Assembly (NCBI GenBank): GCA_037445145.1
Contig: JBBILB010000004.1
Location: 15,555 to 79,554, forward strand
Length of the DNA: 64,000 nt
Direction: 5' to 3'
From: Candidatus Woesearchaeota archaeon
Lineage (GTDB): Archaea > Nanobdellota > Nanobdellia > Woesearchaeales > ARS49
Shown here: positions 5,093 through 26,140 of the stretch, one piece after another
How positions within the stretch are numbered: the first letter of the stretch is position 1
Layout: each line of letters begins with the position of its first letter
Position numbers and translations under genes: made by a program
The notes under the pieces: generated by a model
The model's database searches: none
Seen by the model: only the letters and a program-made list of their open reading frames with translations
Told to the model about the DNA's origin: nothing

Positions 5093-6393
5093 TAGTCAGG
5101 GCACCCCGTGGTGCGGAGCTTCAAAACCTGATAGTCTTCTGTCCTGCCGCCATCAGACACATAAACGCGCATTCTGAAAGGCTCGCCTGCAGGGGGCGTG
5201 GTGATTTCTCCCGGTGATGCAGGCTCTGTCCTAAACGTAACAAGGTCCTCGTCAGGGTCAACCGCCCTTAGTTTTGCAGTCCATGTTTCAGGCCATTTTA
5301 TCACAAGCTCATCGCCAGTGAGGAATATTGACGGCTTTCCCTCGCAGGTGCCAAGCGGAATGAACTCATACCTGTCAAGCGCCGTCTGGTTAATCCACAC
5401 CAGCGCAGGATACCTGTTTGCCCTGAGAATCCAGAACTCCAAAGGCTTGCCGCGCAATCTTGACTCTTCATCCCTAACAATGATTATGTCATCAGTTCCC
5501 TGGTCAAAATCATTCCTGAAAACATTCTTGACAATTGTGACAGGGGTTGCTGCAGTGCTCAGGTTGCGGGGATCAAATGTTGCGTCATTTATTTCGCCAA
5601 GCACAATGCTTTGGACAAAAAGGTAGAATTTTGCAAGGTGGACAGGATAGCCAAGCGAGAACTGGTCAAGAGTTGTGTTCCTTTTTGTCGTAAGGTCTGT
5701 AATGTTGACCTGCCAGCGGACAAGCACTGTGAAGAACTGCTCTGTTTGAATCTGGGTGATGTTTTCAGCAATCATCACGCTAACATTAGGCCTGCCTGCG
5801 GCAATTGAAAGCCCCTGCGCCCCAAAAACCGCCCAGTCAGTGCATTTTGGAAGGTTAAAGCTGATGTATGACTCGAGCTGCTCCTGGATTGAGTCCCTCC
5901 CCGGCTTGAACAGCGGCGGGAGCAATGATTTTCCATAATAACCGCCGTAAAATTCCTTCATGACAGATCCTGTTGTCTGGTTGAACACGTAAGGAAATGA
6001 GGGGAAGGGGTACTCGTCCGGCTCTGCATAATAAAGCGTGCCAATATCCTGCACAGGCCTTGTTATCAGGTAGCTGACATTGAGCCCCTCGTATTCAGCA
6101 TACCTCGAGCCCTTTTCCGCGGGCTGGACATCAGGAGTCAGGCCGCCCTGCATCCTGTACAAGACACCCCCCTGCTTGCCAAGAAGCTCAAGCCCTGCCA
6201 TTGTCGTTATGTCAAGGCAGGACTGAACATATTCCCTTACCGGCTGGACAGCAACCTGCCTGAGCCTTTGCTGCCCTGCCTCCGGCTCTGTCTGCATTGT
6301 TGCGGTCTGCGTACCGAGCCATATGACAAGGATTGCCGCGAACAGCAATATGATGCCCATGGTTATCATAAGCGTGAGCTGTGCATTTTTCAT
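5092..6393 (-). CDS. Hypothetical membrane-anchored/secreted protein (433 aa) with a pilin-like or signal-anchor N-terminus
   Basis: ORF 5092..6453 trimmed to ATG 6393, which forms an ATGA overlap with the upstream stop at 6390. N-terminus is MKNAQLTLMITMGIILLFAAILVIWLG (short basic head plus hydrophobic helix). Many N-x-S/T sequons. No family recognised. Confidence 0.7.
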   Translation of the reverse strand: MKNAQLTLMITMGIILLFAAILVIWLGTQTATMQTEPEAGQQRLRQVAVQPVREYVQSCLDITTMAGLELLGKQGGVLYRMQGGLTPDVQPAEKGSRYAEYEGLNVSYLITRPVQDIGTLYYAEPDEYPFPSFPYVFNQTTGSVMKEFYGGYYGKSLLPPLFKPGRDSIQEQLESYISFNLPKCTDWAVFGAQGLSIAAGRPNVSVMIAENITQIQTEQFFTVLVRWQVNITDLTTKRNTTLDQFSLGYPVHLAKFYLFVQSIVLGEINDATFDPRNLSTAATPVTIVKNVFRNDFDQGTDDIIIVRDEESRLRGKPLEFWILRANRYPALVWINQTALDRYEFIPLGTCEGKPSIFLTGDELVIKWPETWTAKLRAVDPDEDLVTFRTEPASPGEITTPPAGEPFRMRVYVSDGGRTEDYQVLKLRTTGCPD

Positions 6394-7565
6394 GGTCTCA
6401 ATTTTCCTGTCAGGGCAGGCCATGCCCTGACAATCGGGCTTGCTTCCAAACAATCATTCTCGTATCCTGGCTCGCACCTGTGCCTTGCAATAATGTTGAA
6501 GCCCGTGCCTGTCTGGTTTTCGCAGAATGCCCTTGTGTCATACACCTTGACAAGGTTAAGGCAAGGGTCTTTGCCAAGGTTGATATTGGAATACCTGACA
6601 CCGATATAGTCTATTGGCACAGGGCTTGACTCTTTGTAAGGCAGGATTGTGTATTCCGGTCTCAGATTTTTTTCAAGGAAGCCAAAAATGGCCTTGTTGC
6701 CGTTCTGCGCGAGATAAATGTGGTTGAACAACCGCGACCTTGGGAAATAAAGGAAGTTCATGCCGGGATTTTCAGGCTTGTGCAATACCTGCATTACGTA
6801 ATAACTCATTGTTGCCATTGGGCCTGTTATTTTTTCCAAAATTCCTGCCGGGGGCAGTGAAAGGCTGCCGTTTGGAAGATAAATGACTGCATTAAGCGAG
6901 GGGCTGTACCAGACATTTGAGCCGCAGGACGCAAAGCCCGTAATTTCAGGATTGACATTCTTGCACAAATCCGCACTCTTGTCCAGCGCAAGCAGGAATG
7001 AGCGCGTTGTGTGGTTTACTGGAACATTAAGCGTTGCTCCCACGGCAATTGCTGCAGGAGTCTTGAGGATGCAGATGCTGTTAATGCAGGGGACTGCCTT
7101 ATTGCCAATGTTGCAGCTGCTGCCAAGATATTCCTCAACAAGGACATTTTTGACCAGATAATCATACTTGTTAAGCACAGCTTCGTACGAGTCGCAGAAC
7201 AAGGTGTGGCGGTCAGGGGAAGTTTCCTGCGCGAGCTGGAGAAGCTGGAGCGCAAGCCTCTTTGTGCGGGTTGTCCAGTTCCCATTCTCGCAGACATAGT
7301 CAAGGATGCTCTGGGAATTGTTGACGCACCTTGGCCATAGCCGTTCATCGCCCAACTCAAACCAACGCAAAATATCCCCGTCATAGCTGTCATTGCCAAG
7401 CGTGTGCAAAAGGCACTGGGTCTCATTCGCGCACGCGCCGCCCATTGACAAGTCCCATGAAAAACTGACTGCCACCCTCTGCCAGTCAGCGCCTATGTCA
7501 GCAAGCACCCCAGGCAAAAAAACTGCTACAAATACCAGCAATGCCGCAAATGTTGTTCTTCTCAT
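6390..7565 (-). CDS. Hypothetical secreted cysteine-containing protein (391 aa)
   Basis: ORF 6390..7691 trimmed to ATG 7565, preceded by a GAGGGTG SD-like site. MRRTTFAALLVFVAVFLPGVLA is a Sec-type signal peptide. It lies 28 nt downstream of the preceding gene. Confidence 0.7.
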   Translation of the reverse strand: MRRTTFAALLVFVAVFLPGVLADIGADWQRVAVSFSWDLSMGGACANETQCLLHTLGNDSYDGDILRWFELGDERLWPRCVNNSQSILDYVCENGNWTTRTKRLALQLLQLAQETSPDRHTLFCDSYEAVLNKYDYLVKNVLVEEYLGSSCNIGNKAVPCINSICILKTPAAIAVGATLNVPVNHTTRSFLLALDKSADLCKNVNPEITGFASCGSNVWYSPSLNAVIYLPNGSLSLPPAGILEKITGPMATMSYYVMQVLHKPENPGMNFLYFPRSRLFNHIYLAQNGNKAIFGFLEKNLRPEYTILPYKESSPVPIDYIGVRYSNINLGKDPCLNLVKVYDTRAFCENQTGTGFNIIARHRCEPGYENDCLEASPIVRAWPALTGKLRP

Positions 7566-7593
7566 CACACCCTCTTTTTTTGAAAATACTCTG

Positions 7594-9363
7594 CTATTCC
7601 TCCCTGGGCATCCTGCAGATAAACCCTTCCTCTCCAATCCTGTAGTATGAATTGAGCTGCTGGCAGGCAGTGCCGTTCCAGCACTGGTCATAAGCGCAGC
7701 AACCTGAAACCGCTATGCCCTTAATTCCTGTAAGTGCAGGAGACCATTTTATGCTCTTGTTAATCATTCCAGCAAGCTCGCTCGTGAAATCCCATTTGCC
7801 GTTCGGCTGGCACACTGCGTGCGGCTTTGTGCTCTCATGAATATTGGCAAGGACTGCGCCGCAGGGGGTGACGCTGTTGTTCACAAGCACGTCATGCGGC
7901 GGCTGCCTGAACACGTCCTTGAGCTGGAGGATTGTGCTTGACTGCGGGATGCGGCAGCCAAAGAACTGGCCCTTGTAATTAATCACGCGGTCAGCGCCAA
8001 CAGGAAGGTAAGGCACAAAGTCCCCTGTCGGGATAAACACCTTGTTCCAGCAGCCGCCAAGCCCATTCGGGTATGCGGGGTCATTGTAGTATTCCTTGAT
8101 GTCATCATCCTCACTGCAGCAATAAGTCCCTGTCCAGCTGTACCCCGCAGAAGTGCAACTCGGCTCATCCTTAGAATCAAGATCTTTAGTCCAGTCGCCG
8201 TCAGAAGCGCAGTAATAAGTGTCCTCAAAAGAAGGGTTTGTCATCCCCATATCAAGACCATTGATTGATGAGAATGGCCCTGATATGCCGCCGCACTCAT
8301 AAACAGTCCTGTCAGAGCAGGAATACTCATGCGAGACCCTGCCAAAATTGACAATCCTGAACCCGCCAAAATCCTTGGTTATGCCTTCAAGCTGGCTTCC
8401 GCAGCTGAAGAATGCAGTGCCGTTTGAAACAACAGAGCCGTCAGGACAATTCATTTCATGAATTTCACCAAGTTCTGCCAAAGGCACCCACTGCCATTCA
8501 TCATTCACGTTCTTGCCGCAAATGGAATCAATTGTGGTGTTTTCAACAACAAGCTGGTATTTCGTGCATTTCTTAAAATAATTCCGCTCAGTGCATTCCT
8601 GCCTTGTGCTATGGGGAATCCTGCCAACAAACTGGCAGCTTGTGAAGTTAACACCGCAGCAATACCCATTGTACCAGTCACCGCCCTTGTCAACACAGTC
8701 CCTATAAGTTCCTTCGTTGACATCGCAAACTTGATTGTTGTTTGTGTCAGCGCAGACAAAAACCTCATCACTAGGGTTCTGTGTCTCATTGCGCACGTAA
8801 TCCCAGTCATCTGTCTCCGTGTTCTCAACCCACGCAAGCACCCCAGGAATGCCTGAATAAACCCTGAAAAGGTTTGATGCAGGAGAAACATTAACCAGTG
8901 AGCTGATTATGCCAAGCGAAAGAGGGTCAGCATCTCTTGAAACACTACCCCAAATCTCATAAGGAACCATCCTTGCTTCAAGGAATGTCATCCCTGTGCT
9001 GTGGCTGCCAATATACCCTGAATAAGTAAAGTTTTCTGCAGGCGTATTTCCAAGATACCGCTCAAAAATAAGGCCGATTCCAGAGCTTGCCTTAAATACC
9101 CAGGACGTGGTGTAAACCTTGGCGCCGCCCTGCCACAATTCAAAAATCATGCTGTTGTGGTTATGGGAATTGTGCGAAATGTGCGGAGAAAAAACAACCT
9201 TGTCAAAAGTCTTGTTCATACCAAAAAAAACATTGCCGGCAGGACAGCACATCCCGCCTGTTGTCCTGTAAACCTCAACAACCTGCACCTCAAAAGGCAT
9301 TGCAAAAACAGCACAGCTAAGCGCTATTAAGAGAATACTTAGTATTACTGCTGTTCGTTGCAT
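7594..9363 (-). CDS. Hypothetical secreted cysteine-rich protein (589 aa)
   Basis: ATG 9363 lies 6 nt after GAGGAGG. Signal peptide is MQRTAVILSILLIALSCAVFA. Recurring W-x-G-x-Y-C-C motifs (GDWYNGYCCG, YSWTGTYCCS) and SGCCAYDQCWNGTAC. First gene of the four-gene operon. Confidence 0.75.
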   Translation of the reverse strand: MQRTAVILSILLIALSCAVFAMPFEVQVVEVYRTTGGMCCPAGNVFFGMNKTFDKVVFSPHISHNSHNHNSMIFELWQGGAKVYTTSWVFKASSGIGLIFERYLGNTPAENFTYSGYIGSHSTGMTFLEARMVPYEIWGSVSRDADPLSLGIISSLVNVSPASNLFRVYSGIPGVLAWVENTETDDWDYVRNETQNPSDEVFVCADTNNNQVCDVNEGTYRDCVDKGGDWYNGYCCGVNFTSCQFVGRIPHSTRQECTERNYFKKCTKYQLVVENTTIDSICGKNVNDEWQWVPLAELGEIHEMNCPDGSVVSNGTAFFSCGSQLEGITKDFGGFRIVNFGRVSHEYSCSDRTVYECGGISGPFSSINGLDMGMTNPSFEDTYYCASDGDWTKDLDSKDEPSCTSAGYSWTGTYCCSEDDDIKEYYNDPAYPNGLGGCWNKVFIPTGDFVPYLPVGADRVINYKGQFFGCRIPQSSTILQLKDVFRQPPHDVLVNNSVTPCGAVLANIHESTKPHAVCQPNGKWDFTSELAGMINKSIKWSPALTGIKGIAVSGCCAYDQCWNGTACQQLNSYYRIGEEGFICRMPREE

Positions 9364-9434
9364 GCACAACCTCCTCTTTTAAATAGATAGGGCGCCCTTG
9401 GTTTAAAAAGCTTATCTCATATTATTACCGAAAG

Positions 9435-13408: not shown

Positions 13409-13855
13409 ATGATTGATGTCGGAAGAATCTGCGTGAAAACCGCAGGAAGAGACGCAGGAATGAAGTGCGTCGTGGTTGATGTTATTGATGATAATTTTGT
13501 CCTCATAGATGGCGAAACAAGGAGAAGGAAGTGCAACATAATGCACCTTGAGCCGCTTGACAGGACCGTTGAGTTGAAAAAAGGCGCGAGCCACGCAGAA
13601 GTCGCAAAAGCGTTTGAGCAGCTGGGATATGCAGTGCGCGCTACCAAGGCAAAGCCAAGAAAAGCGCGTCCAAGAAAGGCAAGAAAGAGCAAGCTTGCAG
13701 AACAAAAGCCAGCAACAGCACAAAATACTACAAAAGTCAAAACAAAACCTGCATCTGCAAAGGAAGCTGAGCCAAAAGCACCTGCTGCAAAAACCACTCC
13801 TGAAAAGACGGCTATCAGGAAACCCGCGTCTGCTGTACAAAATAAGCCAGTGTGA
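13409..13855 (+). CDS. rpl14e: 50S ribosomal protein L14e with ~70-aa Lys/Ala/Pro-rich C-terminal tail
   Basis: MIDVGRICVKTAGRDAGMKCVVVDVIDDNFVLIDGETRRRKCNIMHLEP (KOW/L14e), preceded by GGAGGAAG SD. The tail is KAKPRKARPRKARKSKLAEQKPATAQNTTKVKTKPASAKEAEPKAPAAK. Confidence 0.9.
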   Translation: MIDVGRICVKTAGRDAGMKCVVVDVIDDNFVLIDGETRRRKCNIMHLEPLDRTVELKKGASHAEVAKAFEQLGYAVRATKAKPRKARPRKARKSKLAEQKPATAQNTTKVKTKPASAKEAEPKAPAAKTTPEKTAIRKPASAVQNKPV

Positions 13856-13908
13856 GAAGGATCAAGCATTATTGATACGGCGCTCACTGCGGTCAGATGG
13901 TCTAAAAA

Positions 13909-15561
13909 CTATGCTTTCTTCAGATGATTGAATAATTCTGTCAGGTTTATCTCTGCTGCTGCAACAGGCATTTCAAGGTTGAAGTTCGTTATTACCTGAG
14001 GATGCATTTCGCCAACAATGGCGATTGCATGGTCGGCTATCTTTACTTGAGCTACGCGGCCTGGCACAAAGCTGGAGTGCTCTGTTTCCTCAAAGGAAGC
14101 ATTAAGCCCAAGAACCCTAAACAAATACTCAATAACTTGCCTCATTTCAGTATAGTCTGCCTTTGGATGGGCTGAAACCATTGCGAGCTTTGTTATTTCG
14201 CCAACCTGGGTGGGTGTCTTTGGGTCATTTGAGAATACTGTGCCGATTGAGAAGAACTTTTGCGGATAATCCTTCATCTTGTTGACCCTCAGGACTTCCA
14301 TCATAGAAGGAAGCATCCATGCCCTTAATGCATTGTAATCAACAGTCAGGGCATTCGCCAGTTCAATGACATCTACCTTGCAATTCATTGCCTTTGCCTG
14401 CACAGCAATATTGGAAATGTGGTAAGTAATTGCTTCAAGCATGCCAAGGCCAACAAGGAAGTTGGCGATTGTTTCCTGGAAATCAGAAAAGTCATCTGCA
14501 GAACCGATTGTCGCAACCTTTGGAATTTCGGGCCTGAACTTTTCATAGCCGTAGGCAATCGCAATGTCCTCTGCAAGGTCAACAAGGTGCATTACGTCAG
14601 CCCTGTAAGCAGGAACAAGCGCATGGCCTGAGGCATAACCGTATCCCATGCGCTTAAGCAGCTTTTTGGCTTCTGCCTCCTTAAGCTCAATGCCGAGAAG
14701 CCTGCTGACTGCATCAATGTCCACCTTCATTTTTCTCGGAGACAGGTCAGGCGTCGTGACTTTTTTCCTGTACATAACATCAACGCTGAATATTTTTCCC
14801 CCCATGTCCGCAAGCGCGGTAACAATGATGTTAAGCAAAACATTCAGGGCACGTAAGTCAAAGCCAGAACACTCAATGAAGACATCCTTTGTCGTGGTCT
14901 CGACCTTTCCGGTCAGTTGGGAGTTTATGATTGGCGGAACGCTGAGCACCTGCTTTTTTGCATCAATAAAGACAGGGAACCTTGGCTGTCCCTTAAGCAA
15001 GTGCGCATACGCCCTGCCAGTCGGGTGCTGGACAAGCAACTGCGCCGCATCCATTTCCCTAGAGCTTTCCAGCGGAATGAACACAATCTCCTGCGGCTTT
15101 TTCGCGGTGTAAGTGATTGGGAACTGAATTTTTTCAAGAGGGTAAATACCAATTGCCGCTTTTTTGCGATTCCTGCAGTAAGTGACGTGCAGTTTTTCCT
15201 GCACCTGTATGATTTCGCGGATTTTTTCATCATCAAGCTTAAGCCCCTTTACAACAGCGCAGGCAGTGAAAGGCCTTACTGCGCTGACTGCCCTGTCAAC
15301 AATTACCTGATACCCGCCCTTTGCAACAGGATATCCCCTGAGCCCTGTCTTAACCCCGAGGAAAGAGCTTAGCGAGCGTGCCAAACCCTGCTCGCTGAGC
15401 CAGTCAGGCCTGTTTGGAGAAATATCAACCTCAAGTTCTGTATCAAGAACAGCATCAACAGGAGCACCCATCATTGAAAGGCGGTCTTCAATCTCCTTGT
15501 CATTGAGCTTTTTGCCTATCAAGCGCAAAAATTCCTTCTTGTTGATTGTTATTGCAGACAT
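13909..15561 (-). CDS. pheT: Phenylalanine--tRNA ligase beta subunit (archaeal type)
   Basis: 550 aa. MSAITINKKEFLRLIGKKL..VDISPNRPDWLSEQGLARSL (B3/4, B5 domains). Abuts pheS (stop/start adjacent at 15561/15562). Confidence 0.93.
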   Translation of the reverse strand: MSAITINKKEFLRLIGKKLNDKEIEDRLSMMGAPVDAVLDTELEVDISPNRPDWLSEQGLARSLSSFLGVKTGLRGYPVAKGGYQVIVDRAVSAVRPFTACAVVKGLKLDDEKIREIIQVQEKLHVTYCRNRKKAAIGIYPLEKIQFPITYTAKKPQEIVFIPLESSREMDAAQLLVQHPTGRAYAHLLKGQPRFPVFIDAKKQVLSVPPIINSQLTGKVETTTKDVFIECSGFDLRALNVLLNIIVTALADMGGKIFSVDVMYRKKVTTPDLSPRKMKVDIDAVSRLLGIELKEAEAKKLLKRMGYGYASGHALVPAYRADVMHLVDLAEDIAIAYGYEKFRPEIPKVATIGSADDFSDFQETIANFLVGLGMLEAITYHISNIAVQAKAMNCKVDVIELANALTVDYNALRAWMLPSMMEVLRVNKMKDYPQKFFSIGTVFSNDPKTPTQVGEITKLAMVSAHPKADYTEMRQVIEYLFRVLGLNASFEETEHSSFVPGRVAQVKIADHAIAIVGEMHPQVITNFNLEMPVAAAEINLTELFNHLKKA

Positions 15562-17094
15562 TTAATCCAACCTCAGCCACGCCTCCCGCAACTGCTGGAC
15601 ATCATTCTTGTAAATGTCGCGGAGGTCTGTTATTTTGTAATAGTCGGTTATGATGCGCTCCATGCCAAGCCCCCATGCAAGCACAGGCACAGGCTTTCCG
15701 AGCAATGGCTGCACAACCTCTGGGCGGAAAATTCCTGCGCCGCCGAGCTCAACCCACTCGTTTTTCAAAGGATGCCAGACATCAACTTCCATTGAAGGCT
15801 CCGTGTACGGAAAGTGGGACGGCCTGAGCCTTATTTTTTCAAAGCCCATCTTCTTGAAAAATTCCTTGAGATACCCCTGCAAATGGCACAAGTTTACATC
15901 GGGATCAACAACAATACCTTCAACGTGATAGAACTCAAAGAGGTGCTTCCAGTCAAGGGTTTCATTCCTGAAAACCTTCACAACGCTGAAGAACTTCGCC
16001 GGCAAGTCTTTTTCCTCAAGCCGGGAGATTGCCTGTGCGCTAAGCACGGTGCTGTGCGTCCTAAGAAGGAGTTCCTTCGCTTTTTCCTCAGACCACGGCT
16101 GCTGCCAGCCAGTGCTTCCTGTCTTTCCGCCATACTCGTGCACTGCCTTTACCTCATTTACAAATGCTTTTGGAAGCAATGCCTTGTTGGGCTTTTTCAG
16201 GTAGAAAGTGTCCTGCATTTCCCTTGCAGGATGGTCCTGGGGAACGTACAATGCATCAAGGTCCCAGAATGCGGACTGCACAATCGTGCCGGTCATCTCA
16301 TTGAATCCCATGTCGCGCCAGATTTTCTTAATCCTGTTTATTGAGTCAGAAACAAAATGCCTTCGTCCTCCTGAAATCCTTGGCACCTGCACCGTGACAT
16401 CATATCGCCTTATTGGCTTCTTTTTCCATTCGCCGGAAAGGATTACTTGAGGAGTTATTGCATCAATGACTTGCTCATCCCTCACCCCCATTTCAATAAG
16501 CTGTTTGCCAAGCGGAAGCAGAACAGCCTTCTTCAGCTTGTGCTGATCAACCCTTACAATTGCTTTTCGGTGGCGCAAAGCTTGCAAAACATCCTTTTCC
16601 TCAGGAGCAAGCTCTGTTGCGCGCACAGGGAAACTCCTGCGCAAAAATGCCTCTTCCGGAAATTCCTTTTTCAGCATAGCCCTTCCCTGCTCTGTGAGCT
16701 TGACCTTGAATCCTTTGTCGTGCGAGATGTGTACAAGTGCCTTTTTCCTCAAAAGACCGAGGCTGATGTTCAGCTCGTCCCTTGAGAGCTTTGCCTTTGC
16801 CTGGATTTTGTCAAGCAAAAGCTCCTTGTCGCCAAGCGCCTGCAAAAACCTTCTTTCCGGCAATCCCTGCTTTATGTAAAGCTCGCCGTTCTTGTCAGGA
16901 AAAACAACGTCGTAGGTTTCTGTCTCAACCTTTACTGCCTTCTTGTTCTCAAGCCACTGGAGCGCCCTGACTACTTCAACATCCTTCAGCCCTGTTGCGC
17001 TACATATTGCAGGAACAGTTGTGTGCTTGTCCAGGACCGGAAGCACCTTCCGTTCCAGTGGATGCAAGCTTTGAGCGAGCTTGTCTATGTTCAT
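15562..17094 (-). CDS. pheS: Phenylalanine--tRNA ligase alpha subunit
   Basis: 510 aa. Class II core FRNETLDWKHLFEFYHVEG, GAGIFRPEV, AWGLGMERI. N-terminal winged-helix repeats. Confidence 0.95.
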   Translation of the reverse strand: MNIDKLAQSLHPLERKVLPVLDKHTTVPAICSATGLKDVEVVRALQWLENKKAVKVETETYDVVFPDKNGELYIKQGLPERRFLQALGDKELLLDKIQAKAKLSRDELNISLGLLRKKALVHISHDKGFKVKLTEQGRAMLKKEFPEEAFLRRSFPVRATELAPEEKDVLQALRHRKAIVRVDQHKLKKAVLLPLGKQLIEMGVRDEQVIDAITPQVILSGEWKKKPIRRYDVTVQVPRISGGRRHFVSDSINRIKKIWRDMGFNEMTGTIVQSAFWDLDALYVPQDHPAREMQDTFYLKKPNKALLPKAFVNEVKAVHEYGGKTGSTGWQQPWSEEKAKELLLRTHSTVLSAQAISRLEEKDLPAKFFSVVKVFRNETLDWKHLFEFYHVEGIVVDPDVNLCHLQGYLKEFFKKMGFEKIRLRPSHFPYTEPSMEVDVWHPLKNEWVELGGAGIFRPEVVQPLLGKPVPVLAWGLGMERIITDYYKITDLRDIYKNDVQQLREAWLRLD

Positions 17095-19187: not shown

Positions 19188-19823
19188 TTAATAATCCTCA
19201 ATCCTAACAATTCCATAACCGTACAGCAGGTATGGCGTGCGCCTTGTATCGTACGGCTCATAATATGGCTTGGGTGCGCGGGTGTACTGGAGGTTGAACC
19301 TGGCAATATCCTTGGGAATTGTGTAGAAGTTGTTGTACCTGTATTTTCCGATTTTCTGCACCTCATAAATGTCATCAAAATGGGTGAAGTCAACAACGCG
19401 CCGGTTATCGTACGGGTTTTGGCTTGCGAAAGAATTGTAGTCCCTTAGCGTATAGCAGTTCCAGTCATTGTAATCATCAATGTCATTCTCGTCAAGGGAG
19501 TCATAAGGGTTTTCATTTATGATTTTCAGCTGGTCTTCCCTGCGCAGTTTTTGCAGGTCAGAACGCTTTGCTGTTTTTGCAGTCAGCGGCTCGTAAGAAT
19601 CATAATTGTCTGCGTTCGCAAACCGGTTGTAGTCATCAAGCGAAATACACGCGTATTTGTCAAAATCACCGGCAACATCAGGGTCAACAGCGTCATAAGG
19701 ATTGTGCAGGGCATAATTCACATTATTCCTGTAATCAACCTCGTCAGCATAATACAAAACCCTTGCAGAAGAAAGCTCAAGGCAAATGACTGCAACAAGG
19801 AATAATGCAAAAAGCTTTTTCAT
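19188..19823 (-). CDS. Secreted Tyr/Asp/Asn-rich protein with internal duplication (211 aa)
   Basis: Signal peptide MKKLFALFLVAVICLELSSA. Internal repeat NPYDAVDPDVAGDFDKYACISLDDYNRFA / NPYDSLDENDIDDYNDWNCYTLRDYNSFA. Ends ..YGYGIVRIEDY. Confidence 0.7.
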   Translation of the reverse strand: MKKLFALFLVAVICLELSSARVLYYADEVDYRNNVNYALHNPYDAVDPDVAGDFDKYACISLDDYNRFANADNYDSYEPLTAKTAKRSDLQKLRREDQLKIINENPYDSLDENDIDDYNDWNCYTLRDYNSFASQNPYDNRRVVDFTHFDDIYEVQKIGKYRYNNFYTIPKDIARFNLQYTRAPKPYYEPYDTRRTPYLLYGYGIVRIEDY

Positions 19824-19825
19824 TC

Positions 19826-20338
19826 TCAGTACCCGTATGGAAGATACCTTGACGCGTACGCGCCCACACGCGAGTACCTGTATGGATTGTAATACGGGCT
19901 TGTGAAGCCAAGCTCGTAATCATCACTGTATGGCCTGTAATCATACCCGTAATAAGTACCAACATCGTAATAAGGATAATAATAGTCAAGGTAGCCGTAT
20001 TTGTAATGCCCGGCAGGATGGCCGGAATCATAATTCCTTGTTGAGCTCTCGTATTTAGAACTTCGTGAAAAAGCAAATTCCCTTGACCTGCCATAATCAT
20101 AATGGTCACTGACACGGCTGCTGCGCCAGCCCCCATAATTCTGCGATGAATGCTCGTATTCTGACTCGCGCACACTTACGCTCTCAGAACTGCTCGAGCG
20201 GGAATAATCGCTTGAGTAGCCATCATAATAAGTCCTACCGTGATAATCATAATAATCATCAACGTACACGTGCGCTGAAACGCTGAAAGCTGAAAGAACT
20301 AATGCAACAAACAATGCAGATATATTGGCCGTTTTCAT
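19826..20338 (-). CDS. Secreted tyrosine-rich low-complexity protein (170 aa)
   Basis: ORF trimmed to ATG 20338 (MKTANISALFVALVLSAFSVSAHV signal peptide). The mature part is dominated by Y/D/S/G/R (YVDDYYDYHGRTYYDGYSSDY .. GYLDYYYPYYDVGTYYGYDYRPY .. RYLPYGY). It ends 2 nt before the next gene. Confidence 0.65.
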   Translation of the reverse strand: MKTANISALFVALVLSAFSVSAHVYVDDYYDYHGRTYYDGYSSDYSRSSSSESVSVRESEYEHSSQNYGGWRSSRVSDHYDYGRSREFAFSRSSKYESSTRNYDSGHPAGHYKYGYLDYYYPYYDVGTYYGYDYRPYSDDYELGFTSPYYNPYRYSRVGAYASRYLPYGY

Positions 20339-20430
20339 ACTGCTGCAACCCCCTTCGCTATGGGTATTTTGTAGTGAAGGCTGCTTAAAAAGGTTCGCAA
20401 AAAAAAAGCACAAGCATGAATTCACCCATA

Positions 20431-20443
20431 ATATTTATATATG
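20431..20443 (+). promoter_or_regulatory. TATA-box-like element for the 20471 operon
   Basis: ATATTTATATATG lies about 30-40 nt upstream of the GTG starts at 20471/20480. AAGGTGAT SD at 20468-20475. Confidence 0.45.
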
Positions 20444-20470
20444 TACGAATTCGCTTGGTGACAAAAGAAG

Positions 20471-21649
20471 GTGATTAATGTGAGGAGACGCGGTCAGGCA
20501 TCAGGCAGCGCGGCAGCGACACTCATAGGCCTGATAACGCTTTTGCTGGTGTTCTACATAATTTTCCTTCCGCCAGAGGAGCGAAGGGAGCTCCTGATGG
20601 AGGAAGAAGGAGTCCTGCCTCCAGGAGTGATTGCGCCAGGAGGCGAAGTCATCTTCAAGGCAGCGCCAGGAAGGCTCAATTATGTCGGCCAGACAGAATT
20701 CGAGCACTTTATCCCAAACCTGTTCCTCACTGAGGAGCGCCAGGCAAAAGTCCTTGCAGAGGCAAGCCCGTTCATTATCAAGAAGGGCTGGTTCAGGAAG
20801 CAGTTCAAGAACATCAACTTCTACATCCCTGACCTTGGGACCGTTGACAATGTCATGCTCAGCTTCCAAACACCCATTCACAGAGGCAGGCTGAAAATCT
20901 TCGTCAACGGACAGCAGGTGTTTGAGAACAACATAATAACAAACAACCCTGCGCCAGTGCCAATACCAAAGAGCCTTTTGCGCGAAAACAACGCAGTGGA
21001 ATTCCAGGTATGGGGATTTGGGCTAATATTCTCAAGACAGTACCAGCTCACTGACGTAAAGATAATTGGCGAAATAACAGACGTGAAAAAGCAGGAGGCA
21101 GCAAACTCATTCGGCATTCCAGACATTGAATACCAGAACATTGAGTCAGCATACCTCGGATTCTACCCAATATGCGACAAGGACGACGTGGGAGTGCTTG
21201 ACATAACTCTCAACAACAAAATAATTTATTCGGCAGTGCCTGTCTGCGAGAGCCCAAGCCGCCAAGACCTGTTCAAGGAGGACTTTGTTTCAGGCAAGAA
21301 CACCCTTGGCTTCAGGCTGCGCTCAGGAATGGCCCGCATAGAAAACATAATAATAAAGACATTCGTAAAGCCGACAAAAGGATATTCCGACTTCTTCTTC
21401 CTGGAGCCGGACATATTCACAGCGATTGCAACAGGAAAAGCCCATGCAGTCCTTGAGATAGAATTTGTTGACGACGGCAGACTCAAAGAAGCAGAAACAA
21501 ACATCAACGGAAGGCTGGACTTGCTTTCCCAGCGCGACCCCAAGTATGTCCGCGACATTTCCGCGGTTATCAGGGACGGCAACAATTACATCGGGCTAAT
21601 GCCGATGACTGACCTTAACGTCATCAGCCTGACAGTGCGGGTGGAGTGA
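20471..21649 (+). CDS. Hypothetical surface protein with class III (type IV pilin-like) signal-like N-terminus and three-fold internal repeat
   Basis: GTG start (the alternative GTG at 20480 gives MRRRGQASGS..). RRRGQASGSAAATLIGLITLLLVFYIIF is a basic patch, then G-Q, then a hydrophobic helix. Three repeat units: RLKIFVNGQQVF..NNAVEFQV, VLDITLNNKIIY..GKNTLGFRL, VLEIEFVDDGRL..GNNYIGLMP. Confidence 0.7.
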   Translation: MINVRRRGQASGSAAATLIGLITLLLVFYIIFLPPEERRELLMEEEGVLPPGVIAPGGEVIFKAAPGRLNYVGQTEFEHFIPNLFLTEERQAKVLAEASPFIIKKGWFRKQFKNINFYIPDLGTVDNVMLSFQTPIHRGRLKIFVNGQQVFENNIITNNPAPVPIPKSLLRENNAVEFQVWGFGLIFSRQYQLTDVKIIGEITDVKKQEAANSFGIPDIEYQNIESAYLGFYPICDKDDVGVLDITLNNKIIYSAVPVCESPSRQDLFKEDFVSGKNTLGFRLRSGMARIENIIIKTFVKPTKGYSDFFFLEPDIFTAIATGKAHAVLEIEFVDDGRLKEAETNINGRLDLLSQRDPKYVRDISAVIRDGNNYIGLMPMTDLNVISLTVRVE

Positions 21650-21651
21650 CC

Positions 21652-23130
21652 ATGGCGGAAGCCGCCACTGGCACAGAGAAGCCAAGCGGATGGGGCGTTC
21701 TTATCCTTGCATTTCTACTTATAATATGGCATGTCTTTGACCTTCTCGTAATGAGGCGCCAGGCGCTGGTATCATTCACAATACTGGCAGTAACATTCGG
21801 CGTATACGCGTTTTTGGCACTTATCGCAAAAGGAATAATGAAGGAAAAGGACTGGAAGTTTACCCTATGGTTTTTGGCAATGTGGCTTGTGCCGATAATT
21901 CTCGGGCTTGTTGCAAAAATCGTGAAGGACTTGCTAGTGCTTGAGGCAGTAACAATGGCAGCGGTTTATTTCCCGCTGTTCATATTTTATTTCCTCACGA
22001 GGGGAGCTGGCTCAAAAACAATCACGATATACTTCATAATCTGGGCATTCGGGCTTGTTTTCTGGGCAGTCACTTACGGCGACCTCGTCAGTTATGCAAG
22101 AGAGCAAAAGATTGAGCTTGGCTTCAACCCACTGCTGTCTTACGAGGCAATCATCAGCTGGACAAAAAGAGCAATAATAAACATGTACACCAGAGGTGTG
22201 GAAACAGGAAAGATGCTTGGAACTGAGATTAATATAGCAATAAGGGCTGCAAAGGGAGACTATTACACAGGACAGGTTGACACTGCAGCAAAAAAACGGC
22301 TTGGGGTATACATAGAAAACTTCAGGCCAACAGAGCCGTTCTTTTACGAAAACTCACCAGTAACTGCTTTCGCAACCCTCAAGGCAGAAACCCTTGACAA
22401 GCCTCTTGACATTCACATTACCTGCGATGCAGACGGAACAACCGCTGCAAACATAATAAGGCCAAAGGATACTTTCAACATCATCACTGCAGAACAGCAC
22501 GAGATTGACTGCATCTGGAACAAGGGAGCGCTTAAAAAGGGAATTCACAACCTCAAACTCAAGGCAGAATTTGAGTTCACAACAAGAGCATACATAAAGG
22601 CATACATAATGGATAGGGATAGGCTCAGAGAATACAGAAGGCAGAACATTGACCCGCTCGCAAACGTGCCTGACAGAACCCCTGTAGCAATATACACTTC
22701 AGGACCTGTGCGCATAGGAATGAGCCTTGGACAACAACCAATTGCGCTCGGCAGAAGCGGTGAGGCATTGCAAAGCTGGGGCATCACTGTTGAAAATATC
22801 TGGGACGGGCAGCTTGAGCAGCTCTCAATGCTATACTTCTTTGTGCCAAAAGGAATCAAGATTGCCCATGTAGAAGGAATTAACATCCAGCAAACATCCT
22901 GTGCGGCAATCCCTGAAGAGGAGCAGCAGGCATGCGATGACGGCCTGGTAAATGTTTATTCCCTAAACCCTGGAGCTGCAAGGAATTTCAGAATCCCTCT
23001 TGAAGTCACCAACCCTGAGCAAGTGCTTGGCAATGCACCAATAGCAGTGCAGAACTTTAAGGTCAGCGCACAATACAGGTATCTGCTTGAGCGCAAGTCA
23101 GTAACAGATGTCAAAGGAGCAACAGCATGA
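21652..23130 (+). CDS. Hypothetical polytopic membrane protein (about 5 TM helices) with a C-terminal domain paralogous to the three downstream lipobox proteins
   Basis: ATG 21652 lies 5 nt after GGTGGAG SD (the ORF opens at GTG 21646, overlapping the upstream stop). N-terminal hydrophobic helices (VLILAFLLIIWHVF, FTILAVTFGVYAFLALIA, LWFLAMWLVPIILGLVA, AAVYFPLFIFYFL, IYFIIWAFGLVFWAV). The C-terminal domain shares GVYIENF, SGPVRIGM, VENIWDGQL and AQYRY landmarks with the paralogs. Confidence 0.75.
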   Translation: MAEAATGTEKPSGWGVLILAFLLIIWHVFDLLVMRRQALVSFTILAVTFGVYAFLALIAKGIMKEKDWKFTLWFLAMWLVPIILGLVAKIVKDLLVLEAVTMAAVYFPLFIFYFLTRGAGSKTITIYFIIWAFGLVFWAVTYGDLVSYAREQKIELGFNPLLSYEAIISWTKRAIINMYTRGVETGKMLGTEINIAIRAAKGDYYTGQVDTAAKKRLGVYIENFRPTEPFFYENSPVTAFATLKAETLDKPLDIHITCDADGTTAANIIRPKDTFNIITAEQHEIDCIWNKGALKKGIHNLKLKAEFEFTTRAYIKAYIMDRDRLREYRRQNIDPLANVPDRTPVAIYTSGPVRIGMSLGQQPIALGRSGEALQSWGITVENIWDGQLEQLSMLYFFVPKGIKIAHVEGINIQQTSCAAIPEEEQQACDDGLVNVYSLNPGAARNFRIPLEVTNPEQVLGNAPIAVQNFKVSAQYRYLLERKSVTDVKGATA

Positions 23131-24050
23131 AAAAACAATTCTTGGTTATCGCAATAATGGCGCTGGTCCTGTCAGGATGCCAGTACGGACTTTTCCAGCG
23201 CAAGGACACAATGCACCTGCCAGAAGTCAATATAGGCACGCAGGGTGTTGAGCTCTTTTTTGCACAAGGCACCCCGCCACGGGAAGTATACGAGAGAAGC
23301 CAATTCTCACTGCTAGTAACGCTCTCCAATCTCGGCACAACAGACGTTGAAGACGGCATTTACGCTCTAAGCTATGAACCGCAATACCTTTACCTGCCAA
23401 GGCAGCAAAACCAAGGAAGGTTCAATGTCCGCGGAAAGTCAATATTCAACCCGCAGGGAGAGGAACGCCTGCTGCAATTCAATTTTGACACAAAACCCCT
23501 CGGGCCGCAGCTTCAGGGCTATCCTGCAACAATAACACTCACCGCATGCTATCCATACAGGACAAATGCACCAATAACAGTCTGCATTGACACAGACCTC
23601 ACAGGCAAGGCAGGAGGAAAAGTGTGCACTCCTGCACTGCAGGCATTCGGCCAGGGACAGGGAGCGCCTGTCGCAGTAACAACAGTTGAAACAAGGATGC
23701 TGCCCCACGAGCATGAAAACAGGGTCAGGCCTGAGTTCGTGCTCACAATCAAAAACCTTGGAATGGGAGAGGTTGTTGCGCAGGAGCTCTACCGCGACGC
23801 ATGCTCAGGAAGAGCGTTGGGACCAGAAGGGTGGGGTGTTGTTTCTGTTGAGGCAGCACTTTCTGAAAAACAACTCACGTGCGCGCCAACACCAGTAAAA
23901 ATAAAGCAACAGGGAGAAACGCGGATTGTCTGCACGCTGCCTGAAGGGATTGATTCAAGGATTGGCAGCTACACAGCGCCGCTCACCATAACACTTGGAT
24001 ACGGCTACGTTACAAGCATTAACACTCAGACAAGGATTATGAAGCCATGA
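23127..24050 (+). CDS. Hypothetical lipobox protein, paralog 1 of the double beta-sandwich family (307 aa)
   Basis: ATGA overlap with the upstream gene; AAAGGAG SD. MKKQFLVIAIMALVLSGC lipobox. Landmarks LVTLSNLG, ACYPYRTNAPITVCID, GQGQGAPVAVTTVE, IKNLGMGEV, LGYGY. Confidence 0.75.
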   Translation: MKKQFLVIAIMALVLSGCQYGLFQRKDTMHLPEVNIGTQGVELFFAQGTPPREVYERSQFSLLVTLSNLGTTDVEDGIYALSYEPQYLYLPRQQNQGRFNVRGKSIFNPQGEERLLQFNFDTKPLGPQLQGYPATITLTACYPYRTNAPITVCIDTDLTGKAGGKVCTPALQAFGQGQGAPVAVTTVETRMLPHEHENRVRPEFVLTIKNLGMGEVVAQELYRDACSGRALGPEGWGVVSVEAALSEKQLTCAPTPVKIKQQGETRIVCTLPEGIDSRIGSYTAPLTITLGYGYVTSINTQTRIMKP

Positions 24051-24060
24051 CGACCAAACA

Positions 24061-24069
24061 TTTATATAA
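24061..24069 (+). promoter_or_regulatory. TATA-box-like element (internal promoter) ahead of paralog 2
   Basis: TTTATATAA lies 23-31 nt upstream of ATG 24092, just after the stop of the preceding gene. Confidence 0.4.
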
Positions 24070-24091
24070 CTCAAAACCGTGGTGCAGAAGC

Positions 24092-25015
24092 ATGCGGAAA
24101 GCGCTTTTGCTTTGCACAGTCCTGATTCTGCTTTTTTCCGGCTGCAGGGCTGCCGCCCCCCAAGAAAGACCCACTTTTGTTGAGGAATTCAGAAGGGGAA
24201 CAGAAGGGCTTTACATGAGATTTGCGCAGAACCTGCCGCCAACAAGGCTGTTCTCCGGTGAAGAACTGGCAGTTGTCCTTGAGCTTGAGAACCGCGGAAC
24301 ATACACTATCGGCGGACCGGGCGACAGGATATACCTTTCAGGCTTTGATCCTGCAATAGTAAGCGGCATATCGCCCGCAGGAGAGCAGATTCCTTTGCTT
24401 GAGGGCAGAAGCCAGTTCGTAAGCCAGGGCGGGGTTGACACCGTCACGTTCAGGGCAATGACAAAAGTGCTTCAGGACAGGTATCCCTTGAGATTACTGG
24501 CAACTGCGTGCTATAATTATGAGACAGTCGCTTCTGCAAACATGTGCATAGACCCTGACCCTTACGCACCAGGAATAAGGCCTCGGGTGTGCGTGCCGCA
24601 GAACGTCGGGCTTGGCGAAGGGCAGGGCGCGCCTGTCGCAGTCACCCTTGTTGAGGTTGACGCAAGCCCTGGCAAGACAAGGTTCAAGATACACGTTCAG
24701 AATGTCGGCGGCGGGGAAGTATTCAGGTCAGGAGGCCAGACATTAAACAAGTGCGCGCCAGGCTCCAGGCTAGACTTTGACGAGATCGACTATGTTGAGC
24801 TTGCTGACGTGATTGTCAGCGGAGTTTCAATCAAAGGAAGCTGCAGACCGCTGGACAAGGGACACATAAGGCTGACAAACAATCAAGGGCTTGTGTACTG
24901 CGAGTTTGACAGGCCACGCGGAGAAGCAGCATACGTGAGCCCAATGACAATTGTGCTAAGATACGGCTACAGGACTTCAGTGTTCCACCAGATGGAAATT
25001 CTGCCAATAACATAA
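24092..25015 (+). CDS. Hypothetical lipobox protein, paralog 2 (307 aa from ATG 24092)
   Basis: The ORF opens at 24047 (ATGA overlap), but ATG 24092 gives a canonical MRKALLLCTVLILLFSGC lipobox signal. Landmarks VLELENRG, ACYNYETVASANMCID, GEGQGAPVAVTLVE, VQNVGGGEV, LRYGY. Confidence 0.75.
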   Translation: MRKALLLCTVLILLFSGCRAAAPQERPTFVEEFRRGTEGLYMRFAQNLPPTRLFSGEELAVVLELENRGTYTIGGPGDRIYLSGFDPAIVSGISPAGEQIPLLEGRSQFVSQGGVDTVTFRAMTKVLQDRYPLRLLATACYNYETVASANMCIDPDPYAPGIRPRVCVPQNVGLGEGQGAPVAVTLVEVDASPGKTRFKIHVQNVGGGEVFRSGGQTLNKCAPGSRLDFDEIDYVELADVIVSGVSIKGSCRPLDKGHIRLTNNQGLVYCEFDRPRGEAAYVSPMTIVLRYGYRTSVFHQMEILPIT

Positions 25016-25065
25016 AGCAGTCAGCAAATGTTGCAAGTTTTTACAGCGCTCGCCTGAATTTTATG

Positions 25066-25105
25066 CGCTGGACGCTATACGCTAATAATTGTTATGCGTC
25101 CAGCG
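25066..25105 (+). other. GC-rich 10-bp-stem hairpin in the spacer between paralogs 2 and 3
   Basis: CGCTGGACGC (25066-25075) and GCGTCCAGCG (25096-25105) are perfect complements separated by a 20-nt AT-rich loop. Located 50 nt after the stop at 25015. Confidence 0.5.
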
Positions 25106-25167
25106 TCCCGCGCAACGAAACCGCGGCGCTGAAAGCGCGTTTTCTACCAAATCAATTCAACGAAAGG

Positions 25168-25176
25168 TTTATATAA
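25168..25176 (+). promoter_or_regulatory. TATA-box-like element ahead of paralog 3
   Basis: TTTATATAA lies 23-31 nt upstream of ATG 25199. Confidence 0.45.
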
Positions 25177-25198
25177 CAATTATTCTCGGTAAAGGAAC

Positions 25199-26140
25199 AT
25201 GCGAAGGATAATTGCGGTTATCATTCTGCTCACACTCGTCACTGCATGCGGTCCAGGCAAGAAGGCAGAAAAGATTGAGCTCACTGCGCCTTTTGTTGGC
25301 GGCAAAGCAGGGCTTGAGGCAGAATTCATTGACTTCCGAAAAGAGGTTTTTGACGGCGGGAGGGACCCATTTGACGTTGTAGTAAAGCTTGAGAACAAAG
25401 GCGAGGCAACAGTTGTTCCTGAGCGCGTGCGAGTAAAGCTGTCAGGCATAAATCCTGCAGAGTTCGGCAAGCTTGAGGAAGACCTTGTCAAGAGCCCCAC
25501 AGATGAGCTTTATGCAGTGCGAAAGGACCCGCAAGGCAATGTAATCCCCGGCGGGCAGGCAACTGTTGAGTTCACAGACCTCAACCACTTCTCGCCGATT
25601 GCAGGCGCGCAGGTCGCGTTCCCATTGCGCGCAGACATCTGCTACACTTATACAACAGAAGCGGTAAGCAAGCTTTGCGTACGCGAAAACCTGCTTGCGC
25701 CAGAGCCCGGCGGAATATGCGAAATAACCGAGGACAAGCCAATATTCAACTCAGGCGCACCCGTACAAATCGGTTCTGTAAAAGAAACTGCGCGGGGCAA
25801 GGACAAGATAAGCTTCAGCTTTGAAATCTCAAACTCAGGGACAGGCAATGTTTACGACCGCGGCTCATTCTGCGACAAAAGCGCAAGAGCAAAGGAAAAC
25901 AGGGTTTATGTGATTGTTGACACAAGAATGCCCGGACTGCAGTGCACAGGACTCACGACAACAGGAACAAAGGCAGAAGGATCAATAACACTTTATGACG
26001 GTAAAAAGATAGTCACGTGCACGCAGACAATAACCACAAGGTCTGACTTTGAGCAACAGATAAGCATTGAAGCAGTTTATGACTACGAAGAATACAAGCA
26101 GACAGAAATAACAGTCAAGAGCTCAGGGGAAGAGGAATAA
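25199..26140 (+). CDS. Hypothetical lipobox protein, paralog 3 (313 aa)
   Basis: MRRIIAVIILLTLVTAC lipobox. Landmarks VVKLENKG, ICYTYTTEAVSKLCVR, NSGAPVQIGSVKE, ISNSGTGNV, AVYDY. Confidence 0.75.
   Translation: MRRIIAVIILLTLVTACGPGKKAEKIELTAPFVGGKAGLEAEFIDFRKEVFDGGRDPFDVVVKLENKGEATVVPERVRVKLSGINPAEFGKLEEDLVKSPTDELYAVRKDPQGNVIPGGQATVEFTDLNHFSPIAGAQVAFPLRADICYTYTTEAVSKLCVRENLLAPEPGGICEITEDKPIFNSGAPVQIGSVKETARGKDKISFSFEISNSGTGNVYDRGSFCDKSARAKENRVYVIVDTRMPGLQCTGLTTTGTKAEGSITLYDGKKIVTCTQTITTRSDFEQQISIEAVYDYEEYKQTEITVKSSGEEE

Follow-up and report, generated by a model that had tools for sequence, protein, structure and literature searches.

What could a woesearchaeote build from five adjacent, co-directional genes whose products belong to no recognized family? 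The question is raised by a locus at positions 20471–26140 of a 64,000-nucleotide (nt) stretch of DNA (contig JBBILB010000004.1 of assembly GCA_037445145.1; hereafter, the window) that derives from a Woesearchaeota metagenome-assembled genome (MAG; DPANN, class Nanoarchaeia). The original prediction, made from the sequence alone, had seen in this locus a multi-subunit, membrane-tethered envelope assembly. We suggest, with middling confidence, that it encodes a lineage-specific membrane-tethered surface complex of Woesearchaeales-type DPANN archaea, which serves as a platform contacting the envelope of another cell. Beyond export and membrane anchoring, we infer complex formation, lipidation, glycan binding and the contact role.

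All five predicted open reading frames (ORFs) were found, each on the + strand: O1 (20471–21649; 392 amino acids [aa]), O2 (21652–23130; 492 aa), O3 (23127–24050; 307 aa), O4 (24092–25015; 307 aa) and O5 (25199–26140; 313 aa). They are embedded among housekeeping genes, namely those for PheRS, a TrmB-type regulator, Pelota, the RFC small subunit (RFC-S), TyrRS and PAN. The first three ORFs are translationally coupled, as had been proposed. At the O1/O2 junction, coupling could occur through a GTGA overlap, as an alternative GTG start of O2 at 21646 overlaps the O1 stop codon, or through a Shine-Dalgarno-like GGTGGAG positioned 5 nt before the ATG at 21652; at the O2/O3 junction, an ATGA overlap is combined with a Shine-Dalgarno-like AAAGGAG. 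An upstream ATG at 24047 was ruled out as the start of O4, as orthologs and the database entry favor 24092. No further copy of any module of the operon was found elsewhere in the window. Consistent with the earlier failure to recognize the family, none of the five proteins has a significant match in Pfam, NCBIfam, PHROGs or among PDB sequences, and profile-based searches of PDB sequences, started from the O1, O2 and O4 families, gave nothing below E = 0.2.

Scanning one genome per GTDB species yielded 133 related loci, 80 of which were retrieved. The gene order is conserved in relatives, with the complete arrangement O1-O2-O3-O4-O5 in 55 of the 80 Woesearchaeota/Nanoarchaeia loci and partial orders, mostly on short or end-clipped contigs, in the others; an O1 ortholog is present in 63. 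In almost all relatives, the locus is flanked by Pelota upstream (opposite strand) and by RFC-S (opposite strand) and then TyrRS downstream. The order is kept across lineages at sequence identities down to ~25–35%. Median identities to the window proteins are 52% for O5, 48% for O4, 42% for O1, 35% for O3 and 31% for O2, which makes O5 and O4 the best conserved of the five. In none of the 80 loci is an ATPase, a peptidase or a platform protein linked as a partner to the locus or its conserved flanks, in line with the earlier view that this is not a type IV pilus locus. An exhaustive profile search for the O3/O4/O5 family retrieved 2,968 clusters (50% identity) at E ≤ 1e-3 and 1,321 at E ≤ 1e-30, the top 150 of which are nearly all full-length proteins of ~300–330 aa.

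The titles of the locus records are almost all Woesearchaeota or Nanoarchaeia. Many loci (L002, L006, L008, L012 and others) come from third-party annotation MAGs titled "uncultured Methanosarcinales archaeon", the content of which is of Woesearchaeota type, and one locus each is filed under "Candidatus Binatia bacterium" and "Aenigmatarchaeota" MAG titles (L048 and L042 are among the atypically titled loci). All of these titles probably represent mislabelled or mis-binned records.

Domain architecture of the five subunits

O3, O4 and O5 had been proposed to be lipobox-bearing paralogs. Indeed, they are related along their full lengths (BLASTP E = 1e-26, 1e-12 and 4e-5; hhalign probability 99.8–100%). 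Each complete locus contains one O3, one O4 and one O5 in fixed order and, therefore, the triplication must be older than the sampled radiation and the three copies are not redundant. The N-termini of the window proteins are Sec-type signals that fall within the lipobox pattern (n- and h-regions ending in [LVI][ASTVI][GAS]C), with LSGC in O3 (Cys18, nt 23178–23180), FSGC in O4 (Cys18, nt 24143–24145) and VTAC in O5 (Cys17, nt 25247–25249). The motif [LIV]-x-[GAS]-C is kept in 67/73 O3, 78/81 O4 and 75/75 O5 orthologs, and the lipobox cysteine is nearly invariant across ~230 O3-O5 orthologs; in the O4 alignment, the invariant Cys18 is accompanied by six further conserved cysteines. The O3-O5 signals resemble in their [LIV]-x-[GAS]-C ending those of archaeal lipoproteins that acquire an archaeol thioether in an AliA/AliB-dependent manner (PMC12462473), with the difference that lipidation has been shown only in Haloferax and that no AliA-like gene was recognized in the 64-kb window. 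As DPANN are predicted to be rich in lipobox proteins, and as the lipidation enzyme AliA occurs there (PMC12462473), a lipoprotein reading of O3-O5 is biologically plausible, and lipidation on the lipobox cysteine is a plausible reading of their N-termini.

An AlphaFold2 model of O4 (pLDDT 90.8, pTM 0.81) bears out the beta-sandwich domains that had been read from the sequence. The signal helix is followed by two beta-sandwiches, each of which closes with an unusually long strand of ~24 residues; O3 and O5 carry the tandem beta-sandwich module as well. Foldseek searches with O4 returned only generic tandem immunoglobulin (Ig)-like modules from the PDB, with template-modelling scores (TM-scores) of ~0.2, and only generic beta-sandwich matches among viral models. 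The best Foldseek neighbors of O4 and of the O2 ectodomain (E ~1e-5 to 1e-6) are tandem Ig-like "leg" modules, including integrin alpha thigh/calf domains, complement MG domains, transglutaminase C-terminal barrels, RbmA and CEP192 SPD-2; given the low TM-scores and identities of 6–13%, the likeness denotes a generic fold class and implies neither family nor function. Apart from noise, O2-O5 matched neither CARDB nor any other Ig-like Pfam model at E < 1, and a Pfam scan of ten unusually long members of the O3/O4/O5 family revealed no informative fusions. Bacteroidetes type V pilins, lipoproteins that contain two beta-sandwich domains, were rejected as relatives, as were components of chaperone-usher systems, because specific structural matches to either were not obtained.

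O2 is organized as had been described, with ~5 transmembrane helices (aa 13–151) and, after a long helix (aa 160–200), a soluble part that forms a tandem beta-sandwich ectodomain (aa ~215–490). The first transmembrane helix contains an invariant acidic residue, D30; otherwise, the transmembrane region is poorly conserved and comprises ~5 to ~10 helices among orthologs. A role of this domain as an AliA/Lgt-like lipoprotein transferase was rejected on the basis of its poor conservation, its variable helix number and the lack of a family match.

The ectodomain of O2 had been considered a fourth copy of the module found in O3-O5. Collinearity, profile statistics and the order of structural elements support this idea, but no BLASTP match to O3-O5 does. 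While hhalign probabilities between the O2 ectodomain and O3/O4/O5 are 1–12%, a clean domain alignment gave P = 0.0026 (local) and P = 0.00075 (global), compared to P of 0.4–0.9 in negative controls with the O1 family or a reversed O3/O4/O5 profile. When a hidden Markov model (HMM) of the O2 ectodomain was run against 2,555 ORFs of the 80 loci, 75 of the 84 non-O2 matches at E < 10 were orthologs of O3/O4/O5, families that constitute 8.8% of the set; 3 of the remaining 9 matches are probable divergent O2 proteins, and O5 is the paralog with the most sub-threshold matches to the profile. A low-stringency alignment of the ectodomain to O3-O5 is collinear from end to end and superimposes the landmarks from which the relationship was first proposed, as well as the invariant residues of both families (G-P, N-x-x-x-G and Y-x-Y). 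In the AlphaFold2 model of O2 (ectodomain pLDDT ~90), the order and lengths of elements are as in O4, including the two long strands. Alignment of the O2 and O4 secondary-structure strings gave z = 3.2, with 0 of 300 block permutations reaching the observed score, and the Foldseek neighbor lists of the two overlap strongly. At the level of predicted models, it is thus established that the O2 ectodomain shares the fold class of O3-O5; profile statistics and models together make a common origin quite probable.

O1 has a basic N-terminus, one transmembrane helix (~aa 14–33) and an extracellular region. Among orthologs, a basic patch and a polar spacer of variable length precede a highly conserved hydrophobic helix and the motif FYILFLPPxER, in which Y29, P34 and R38 are invariant. 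The proposal that O1 carries a class III (prepilin-like) signal did not hold up. A strict FlaFind-type pattern, [KRDE][GA][ALIFQMVED][ILMVTAS]x3 directly before the hydrophobic helix, is present in 3 of 56 orthologs, and the window protein is not one of them. A looser [KR][GA][QE] before the helix was found in 38 of the 56, including the window protein (RRRGQ), at a spacing of 1–12 residues, and several orthologs do not contain it. Because the cleavage pattern is not conserved and the spacer before the helix varies, O1 is not a convincing prepilin; an uncleaved signal-anchor protein with the N-terminus inside fits the alignment better.

Likewise, a three-fold internal repeat had been described in O1, while profile self-comparison yields two beta-rich repeats (aa ~110–200 and ~207–300; E = 2e-8) and no third. 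In Pfam scans, 12 of 52 O1 orthologs gave sub-threshold matches (best E = 0.0016), all of them to carbohydrate-binding modules (CBMs) of the galactose-binding-domain-like type: PL4 CBM-like (four orthologs), Sialidase_N (three), CBM_35 (two), GH2_N (two) and Bac_rhamnosid_N (one). A PDB profile search with O1 pointed to the CBM of a GH26 mannanase at E = 0.65. These matches are suggestive of CBM-like jelly-roll repeats.

Conserved cysteine pairs in the operon proteins fit an extracellular location. The predicted membrane-tethered assembly is supported by the conserved gene order, by translational coupling and by the conservation of both signals and cysteines; it would consist of an integral-membrane subunit, the three lipobox paralogs and a single-pass subunit.

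Muralytic modules on long O2 orthologs

A hint at the function of the locus comes from orthologs of O2, the length of which varies from ~490 to ~1,220 aa. The window protein ends directly after the beta-sandwich module and represents an enzyme-less short form. Long forms are encoded at the most divergent loci (L071, L073, L075, L078, L079 and L080). Their N-terminal part consists of a charged cytoplasmic N-terminus, ~9 transmembrane helices and a beta-sandwich ectodomain with a Cys-rich insert; the C-terminal part is a lysozyme-like SLT domain, marked by the motifs E-S, G-x-M-Q-I-N and A-Y-N-G-W-G, to which an fn3 domain is sometimes appended. The L071 protein has an additional NlpC/P60 match. 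The Cys-rich insertion, which shows many CxxC- or CxxxC-like spacings and spans ~aa 650–760 in the O2 proteins of L073, L075, L078, L079 and L080, sits in the second half of the long-form ectodomain; short forms are devoid of it.

A homolog search with the O2 protein of L079 retrieved 62 relatives of 716–1,247 aa. Precomputed Pfam domains or source names label 17 of them as SLT, 6 as GH73 glucosaminidase and 1 as phage tail lysozyme; scans confirm a C-terminal glucosaminidase (63.6 bits, cutoff 30.2) and Phage_lysozyme2 (72.6 bits, cutoff 28.2). A local HMM built from the O2-attached SLT module matched 47 of the 62 long forms, 44 with both the E-[SGT] and the GxMQ motif. Overall, a muralytic module (SLT/GH23, GH73, phage tail lysozyme or NlpC/P60) is present in 61 of the 62.

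The short and long proteins are variants of the same carrier. The O2 ectodomain profile matches the long forms at E ~1e-65, and the GH73 and tail-lysozyme variants occur in the context Pelota/O1/O2/O3/O4/O5, with the long O2 between O1 and O3 (HMM E-values in the variant loci: O1, 1e-143; O2, 5e-65; O3, 9e-82; O4, 2e-90; O5, 1e-92). Window O2 is therefore the carrier ortholog of the long forms by membrane domain, ectodomain and genomic context. As four hydrolase families are found at one and the same site of this carrier, display of muralytic activity by the complex appears to have been selected in the divergent clade. Archaea, to our knowledge, have no murein, and the target of these modules must therefore be bacterial. 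At the locus in which O2 bears the phage tail lysozyme (L082), two opposite-strand genes (15427–16638 and 13421–15427, both − strand) lie just downstream of O5; one of them shows a faint match to Peptidase_M15 (D-Ala-D-Ala carboxypeptidase-type), a possible further peptidoglycan-related activity.

Carrying a muralytic module on a larger envelope or contact apparatus is a concept shared with VirB1-type and FlgJ-type transglycosylases and with phage tail lysozymes, and one O2 variant carries a domain of the latter kind itself. The carriers in those systems are not homologous to O2. In addition, the VirB1/FlgJ-type and phage enzymes open the wall of their producer or that of a phage host, whereas the O2 producer is without murein and the target would be another organism.

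The locus had also been called undescribed, which stands in part. Neither the five-gene operon nor the lipoprotein triplet, the enzyme-less form or the swapping of enzymes on O2 turned up in the literature searched, and a metatranscriptome paper (PMC11606122) contains nothing on these genes. The long O2 class, however, had already been noticed. Two reports (PMC8204110, 2021; PMC9723730, Vigneron et al. 2022, GH23) describe lytic transglycosylases of Woesearchaeota and Pacearchaeota that are large and extracellular and are proposed to serve in attachment to or attack on bacteria (PMC11537232 is cited alongside). Long O2 forms are plausibly these proteins, resembling them in size, membrane anchoring, extracellular site, the SLT domain and lineage restriction, and they would then correspond to fam00969; window O2 differs in having no enzyme module. 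In the accessible parts of PMC8204110 and PMC9723730, no operon, lipoprotein paralogs, O1 or replacement of SLT by GH73, tail lysozyme or NlpC/P60 are described. New here, then, are the operon as a unit, the lipoprotein triplet and O2 enzyme swapping, while the long O2 class comes with a functional hypothesis of its own.

Transcription units and neighboring genes

The sequence TTTATATA occurs 11 times in the window compared to 0.36 expected copies (~30-fold excess), in the inspected cases 29–37 nt upstream of start codons. It looks like the TATA-box consensus of this genome, the mRNAs of which would then be mostly leaderless or have short leaders. A box had been noted upstream of the last two ORFs; indeed, copies at 24061–24068 and 25168–25175 (both + strand) start 31 nt before the ATG codons of O4 and O5, as a putative internal promoter and a putative O5 promoter, respectively. 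A further copy at 20434–20441 (+), which begins 37 nt before the start codon of O1, is the putative promoter of O1-O2-O3. Among orthologs, a TATA-like box is located 20–45 nt upstream of O1 in 11/47, of O4 in 20/72 and of O5 in 26/68 cases, but is nearly absent before O2 (1/65) and O3 (0/62), with 1% at random positions. This distribution suggests that the boxes before O1, O4 and O5 act as promoters.

The 183-nt spacer between O4 and O5 (25016–25198, +; minimum free energy −51.3 kcal/mol, z = −2.1) harbors a long imperfect hairpin, GCGCTGGACGC...GCGTCCAGCG. This hairpin and a G+C stem with a T-run behind it make up a terminator-like element at 25063–25145 (+), with a terminator-like site at 25126–25138. 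An Rfam scan of the region including the spacer gave no match. The element is probably a terminator or a processing element separating the O4 and O5 units. Based on the TATA-like boxes before O1, O4 and O5 and the hairpin/T-run in the O4-O5 spacer, the locus is likely organized into three transcription units, O1-O2-O3, O4 and O5, with short or absent leaders.

Two ORFs, Y1 (19188–19823, −) and Y2 (19826–20425, −), lie between Pelota and O1 and are divergent from O1. Both have signal-peptide-like N-termini, an unusual composition (Y1, 12.8% Asp and 12.3% Tyr; Y2, 18.1% Tyr and 17.6% Ser) and no family match. Homologs are present at the same position only in some, mostly the closest, relatives (L001–L007, L014, L023, L025 and L029), and at most other loci Pelota is ~92 nt from O1. 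Y1 and Y2 may be secreted and serve as matrix or adhesive proteins that accompany the operon in this sub-lineage. Farther upstream, four large ORFs with hydrophobic N-termini (1693, 453, 433 and 591 aa) occupy 11–9369 (−); the largest of them combines a Big_13 Ig-like domain with thrombospondin type 3-like repeats and has a transmembrane segment at its C-terminus, and the other three have no family match. A SpoIIM-family membrane protein (PF01944, 54.5 bits) is encoded at 47543–48391 (+); the SpoIIM family (arCOG01994) is genomically associated with AliA (PMC12462473).

A contact platform and its alternatives

How might the five proteins work together? In the model that we favor, O3-O5 would be exported, lipidated with archaeol on the lipobox cysteine and held on the outside of the membrane, where they and the O2 ectodomain would assemble into a hetero-oligomer of four related modules, arranged around the O2 membrane domain as an integral stalk. 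O1 could join via its conserved transmembrane/PPxER segment, possibly paired with the invariant acidic residue in the first transmembrane helix of O2, and would contribute glycan-binding-like modules. The assembly would be the platform by which small, probably episymbiotic cells contact the envelope of another cell. If the partner is a bacterium, a muralytic "warhead" on O2 would open the peptidoglycan at the contact site; in the enzyme-less lineage of the window, the complex may act as a scaffold or adhesin, or may work with an enzyme encoded elsewhere in the genome. In a bolder version, which we regard as tentative and rather doubtful, the complex would be a universal host-contact organelle of the Woesearchaeales, in which a tandem-Ig stalk of four modules and a glycan-binding subunit carry an exchangeable O2 warhead that tracks the envelope of the partner (bacterial murein versus a murein-free archaeal host).

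Several points weigh against a contact platform. The five-protein complex is deduced from genes and predicted models, the statistics behind the homology between the O2 ectodomain and O3-O5 are weak, and the CBM-like nature of O1 is sub-threshold throughout. No SLT, GH73, lysozyme or NlpC/P60 match was found in window O2 or anywhere in the 64 kb, and the muralytic link of the window locus is therefore one of orthology only. O4 and O5, at median identities of 48–52%, are more conserved than is usual for host-specific adhesins, which fits a structural role at least as well. In addition, ectodomains of two Ig-like domains are short and may not reach past a surface layer (S-layer), if one is present.

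Some of these points lead to an alternative that we consider unlikely, though by no means negligible, namely a constitutive, proteinaceous and S-layer-like wall that would be formed or anchored by the five proteins, with O4 and O5 as abundant lattice subunits; O2 in some lineages would then be no more than a handy anchor for displaying secreted enzymes. The core-genome-like placement between Pelota and RFC-S in almost all relatives would suit such a role, as would the strong conservation of O4 and O5 and their own TATA boxes. Archaeal S-layer proteins typically have Ig-like beta-sandwiches and a lipid anchor (Haloferax csg, Nitrosopumilus SLP), and the proteins are cysteine-rich, with structural-looking invariant residues (G, P, C, aromatic) and no obvious catalytic constellation. 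However, Pfam and NCBIfam scans revealed no match to any S-layer family, the subunits are small (~31 kDa when mature), and the larger secreted repeat proteins at 11–9369 are alternative S-layer or adhesin candidates within the window. Codon adaptation of 0.60–0.73 gives no sign of exceptional expression, although this is a weak and uninformative test. The repeated independent recruitment of four muralytic modules onto O2 argues for a function aimed at another cell and against a passive wall. The same modules can also be read in terms of nutrition: in a Sus-like system, the lipoproteins and O1 would bind cell-wall glycans, the O2 enzyme would cleave them and the O2 membrane domain would import the products. 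The CBM-like matches of O1 and the glycoside-hydrolase modules on O2 orthologs are in keeping with this scheme, and tandem beta-sandwich lipoproteins are architecturally reminiscent of SusE/F-type surface glycan-binding proteins. Moreover, DPANN are thought to scavenge cell-wall material (PMC11537232). Both the Bacteroidetes Sus-like and the Gram-positive WxL/Csc complexes are encoded by operons of lipid- or membrane-anchored beta-sandwich surface proteins, sometimes with a glycoside hydrolase, and WxLIP is among the weak Foldseek matches of O4; yet there is no sequence homology, SusC/SusD and WxL domains are lacking, and the systems belong to another domain of life, so that the likeness is one of analogy. 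As a Pfam scan found no transporter signature in O2, its transmembrane region is poorly conserved with a variable number of helices, no ATPase or known permease is linked, and the short form has no enzyme, glycan uptake is distinctly improbable.

The remaining two alternatives question the assembly itself. A type IV pilin-like, bindosome-like structure, in which O1 would be processed by a PibD/FlaK-type peptidase and the filament machinery would be encoded elsewhere, could draw on the [KR][GA][QE] motif of most O1 orthologs and on the use of class III signals by archaeal non-pilus surface proteins as well (bioRxiv 10.64898/2026.04.22.720090). Yet the rarity of the strict pattern, the variable spacer and the orthologs without any motif speak against processing, and O1 conservation peaks at the C-terminal end of the helix and in PPxER, unlike in pilins. 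Furthermore, no ATPase, platform protein or prepilin peptidase was found in the locus, its conserved flanks or the window proteins scanned, which among polytopic membrane proteins included SpoIIM, EMC3/YidC-like and ABC-2 permeases. This possibility thus seems scarcely credible. We also think it very unlikely that the locus encodes no complex at all but five independent surface proteins of unrelated function, co-located by inheritance. Their association is deduced, and O4 and O5 apparently have promoters of their own, but strict conservation of the order down to ~25–35% identity, the O1/O2/O3 stop/start overlaps and the presence of one copy of each paralog per complete locus argue against such co-inheritance.

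Woesearchaeota count among the most widespread archaea that have not been cultivated, and the majority of their lineage-specific proteins are unannotated. The present analysis unites five dark-matter families in a single conserved operon, with ~3,000 clusters at 50% identity in the O3/O4/O5 family alone, and ties this operon to the large lytic transglycosylases, the only surface proteins of the group for which a functional hypothesis existed. The evidence for lipobox lipoproteins in DPANN, small so far, is extended by a well-conserved set of predicted members. If the complex is a contact apparatus, its subunits would be targets for proteomics, for labelling in cryo-electron tomography and for host identification guided by antibodies or fluorescence in situ hybridization. 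The membrane anchoring of the muralytic proteins would be explained, and the C-terminal module of O2 would become a testable genomic predictor of engagement with bacteria. Should the tentative notion of a modular organelle prove true, the locus would represent a genetically defined machine at the interface between cells and would provide a sequence marker for the type of host.

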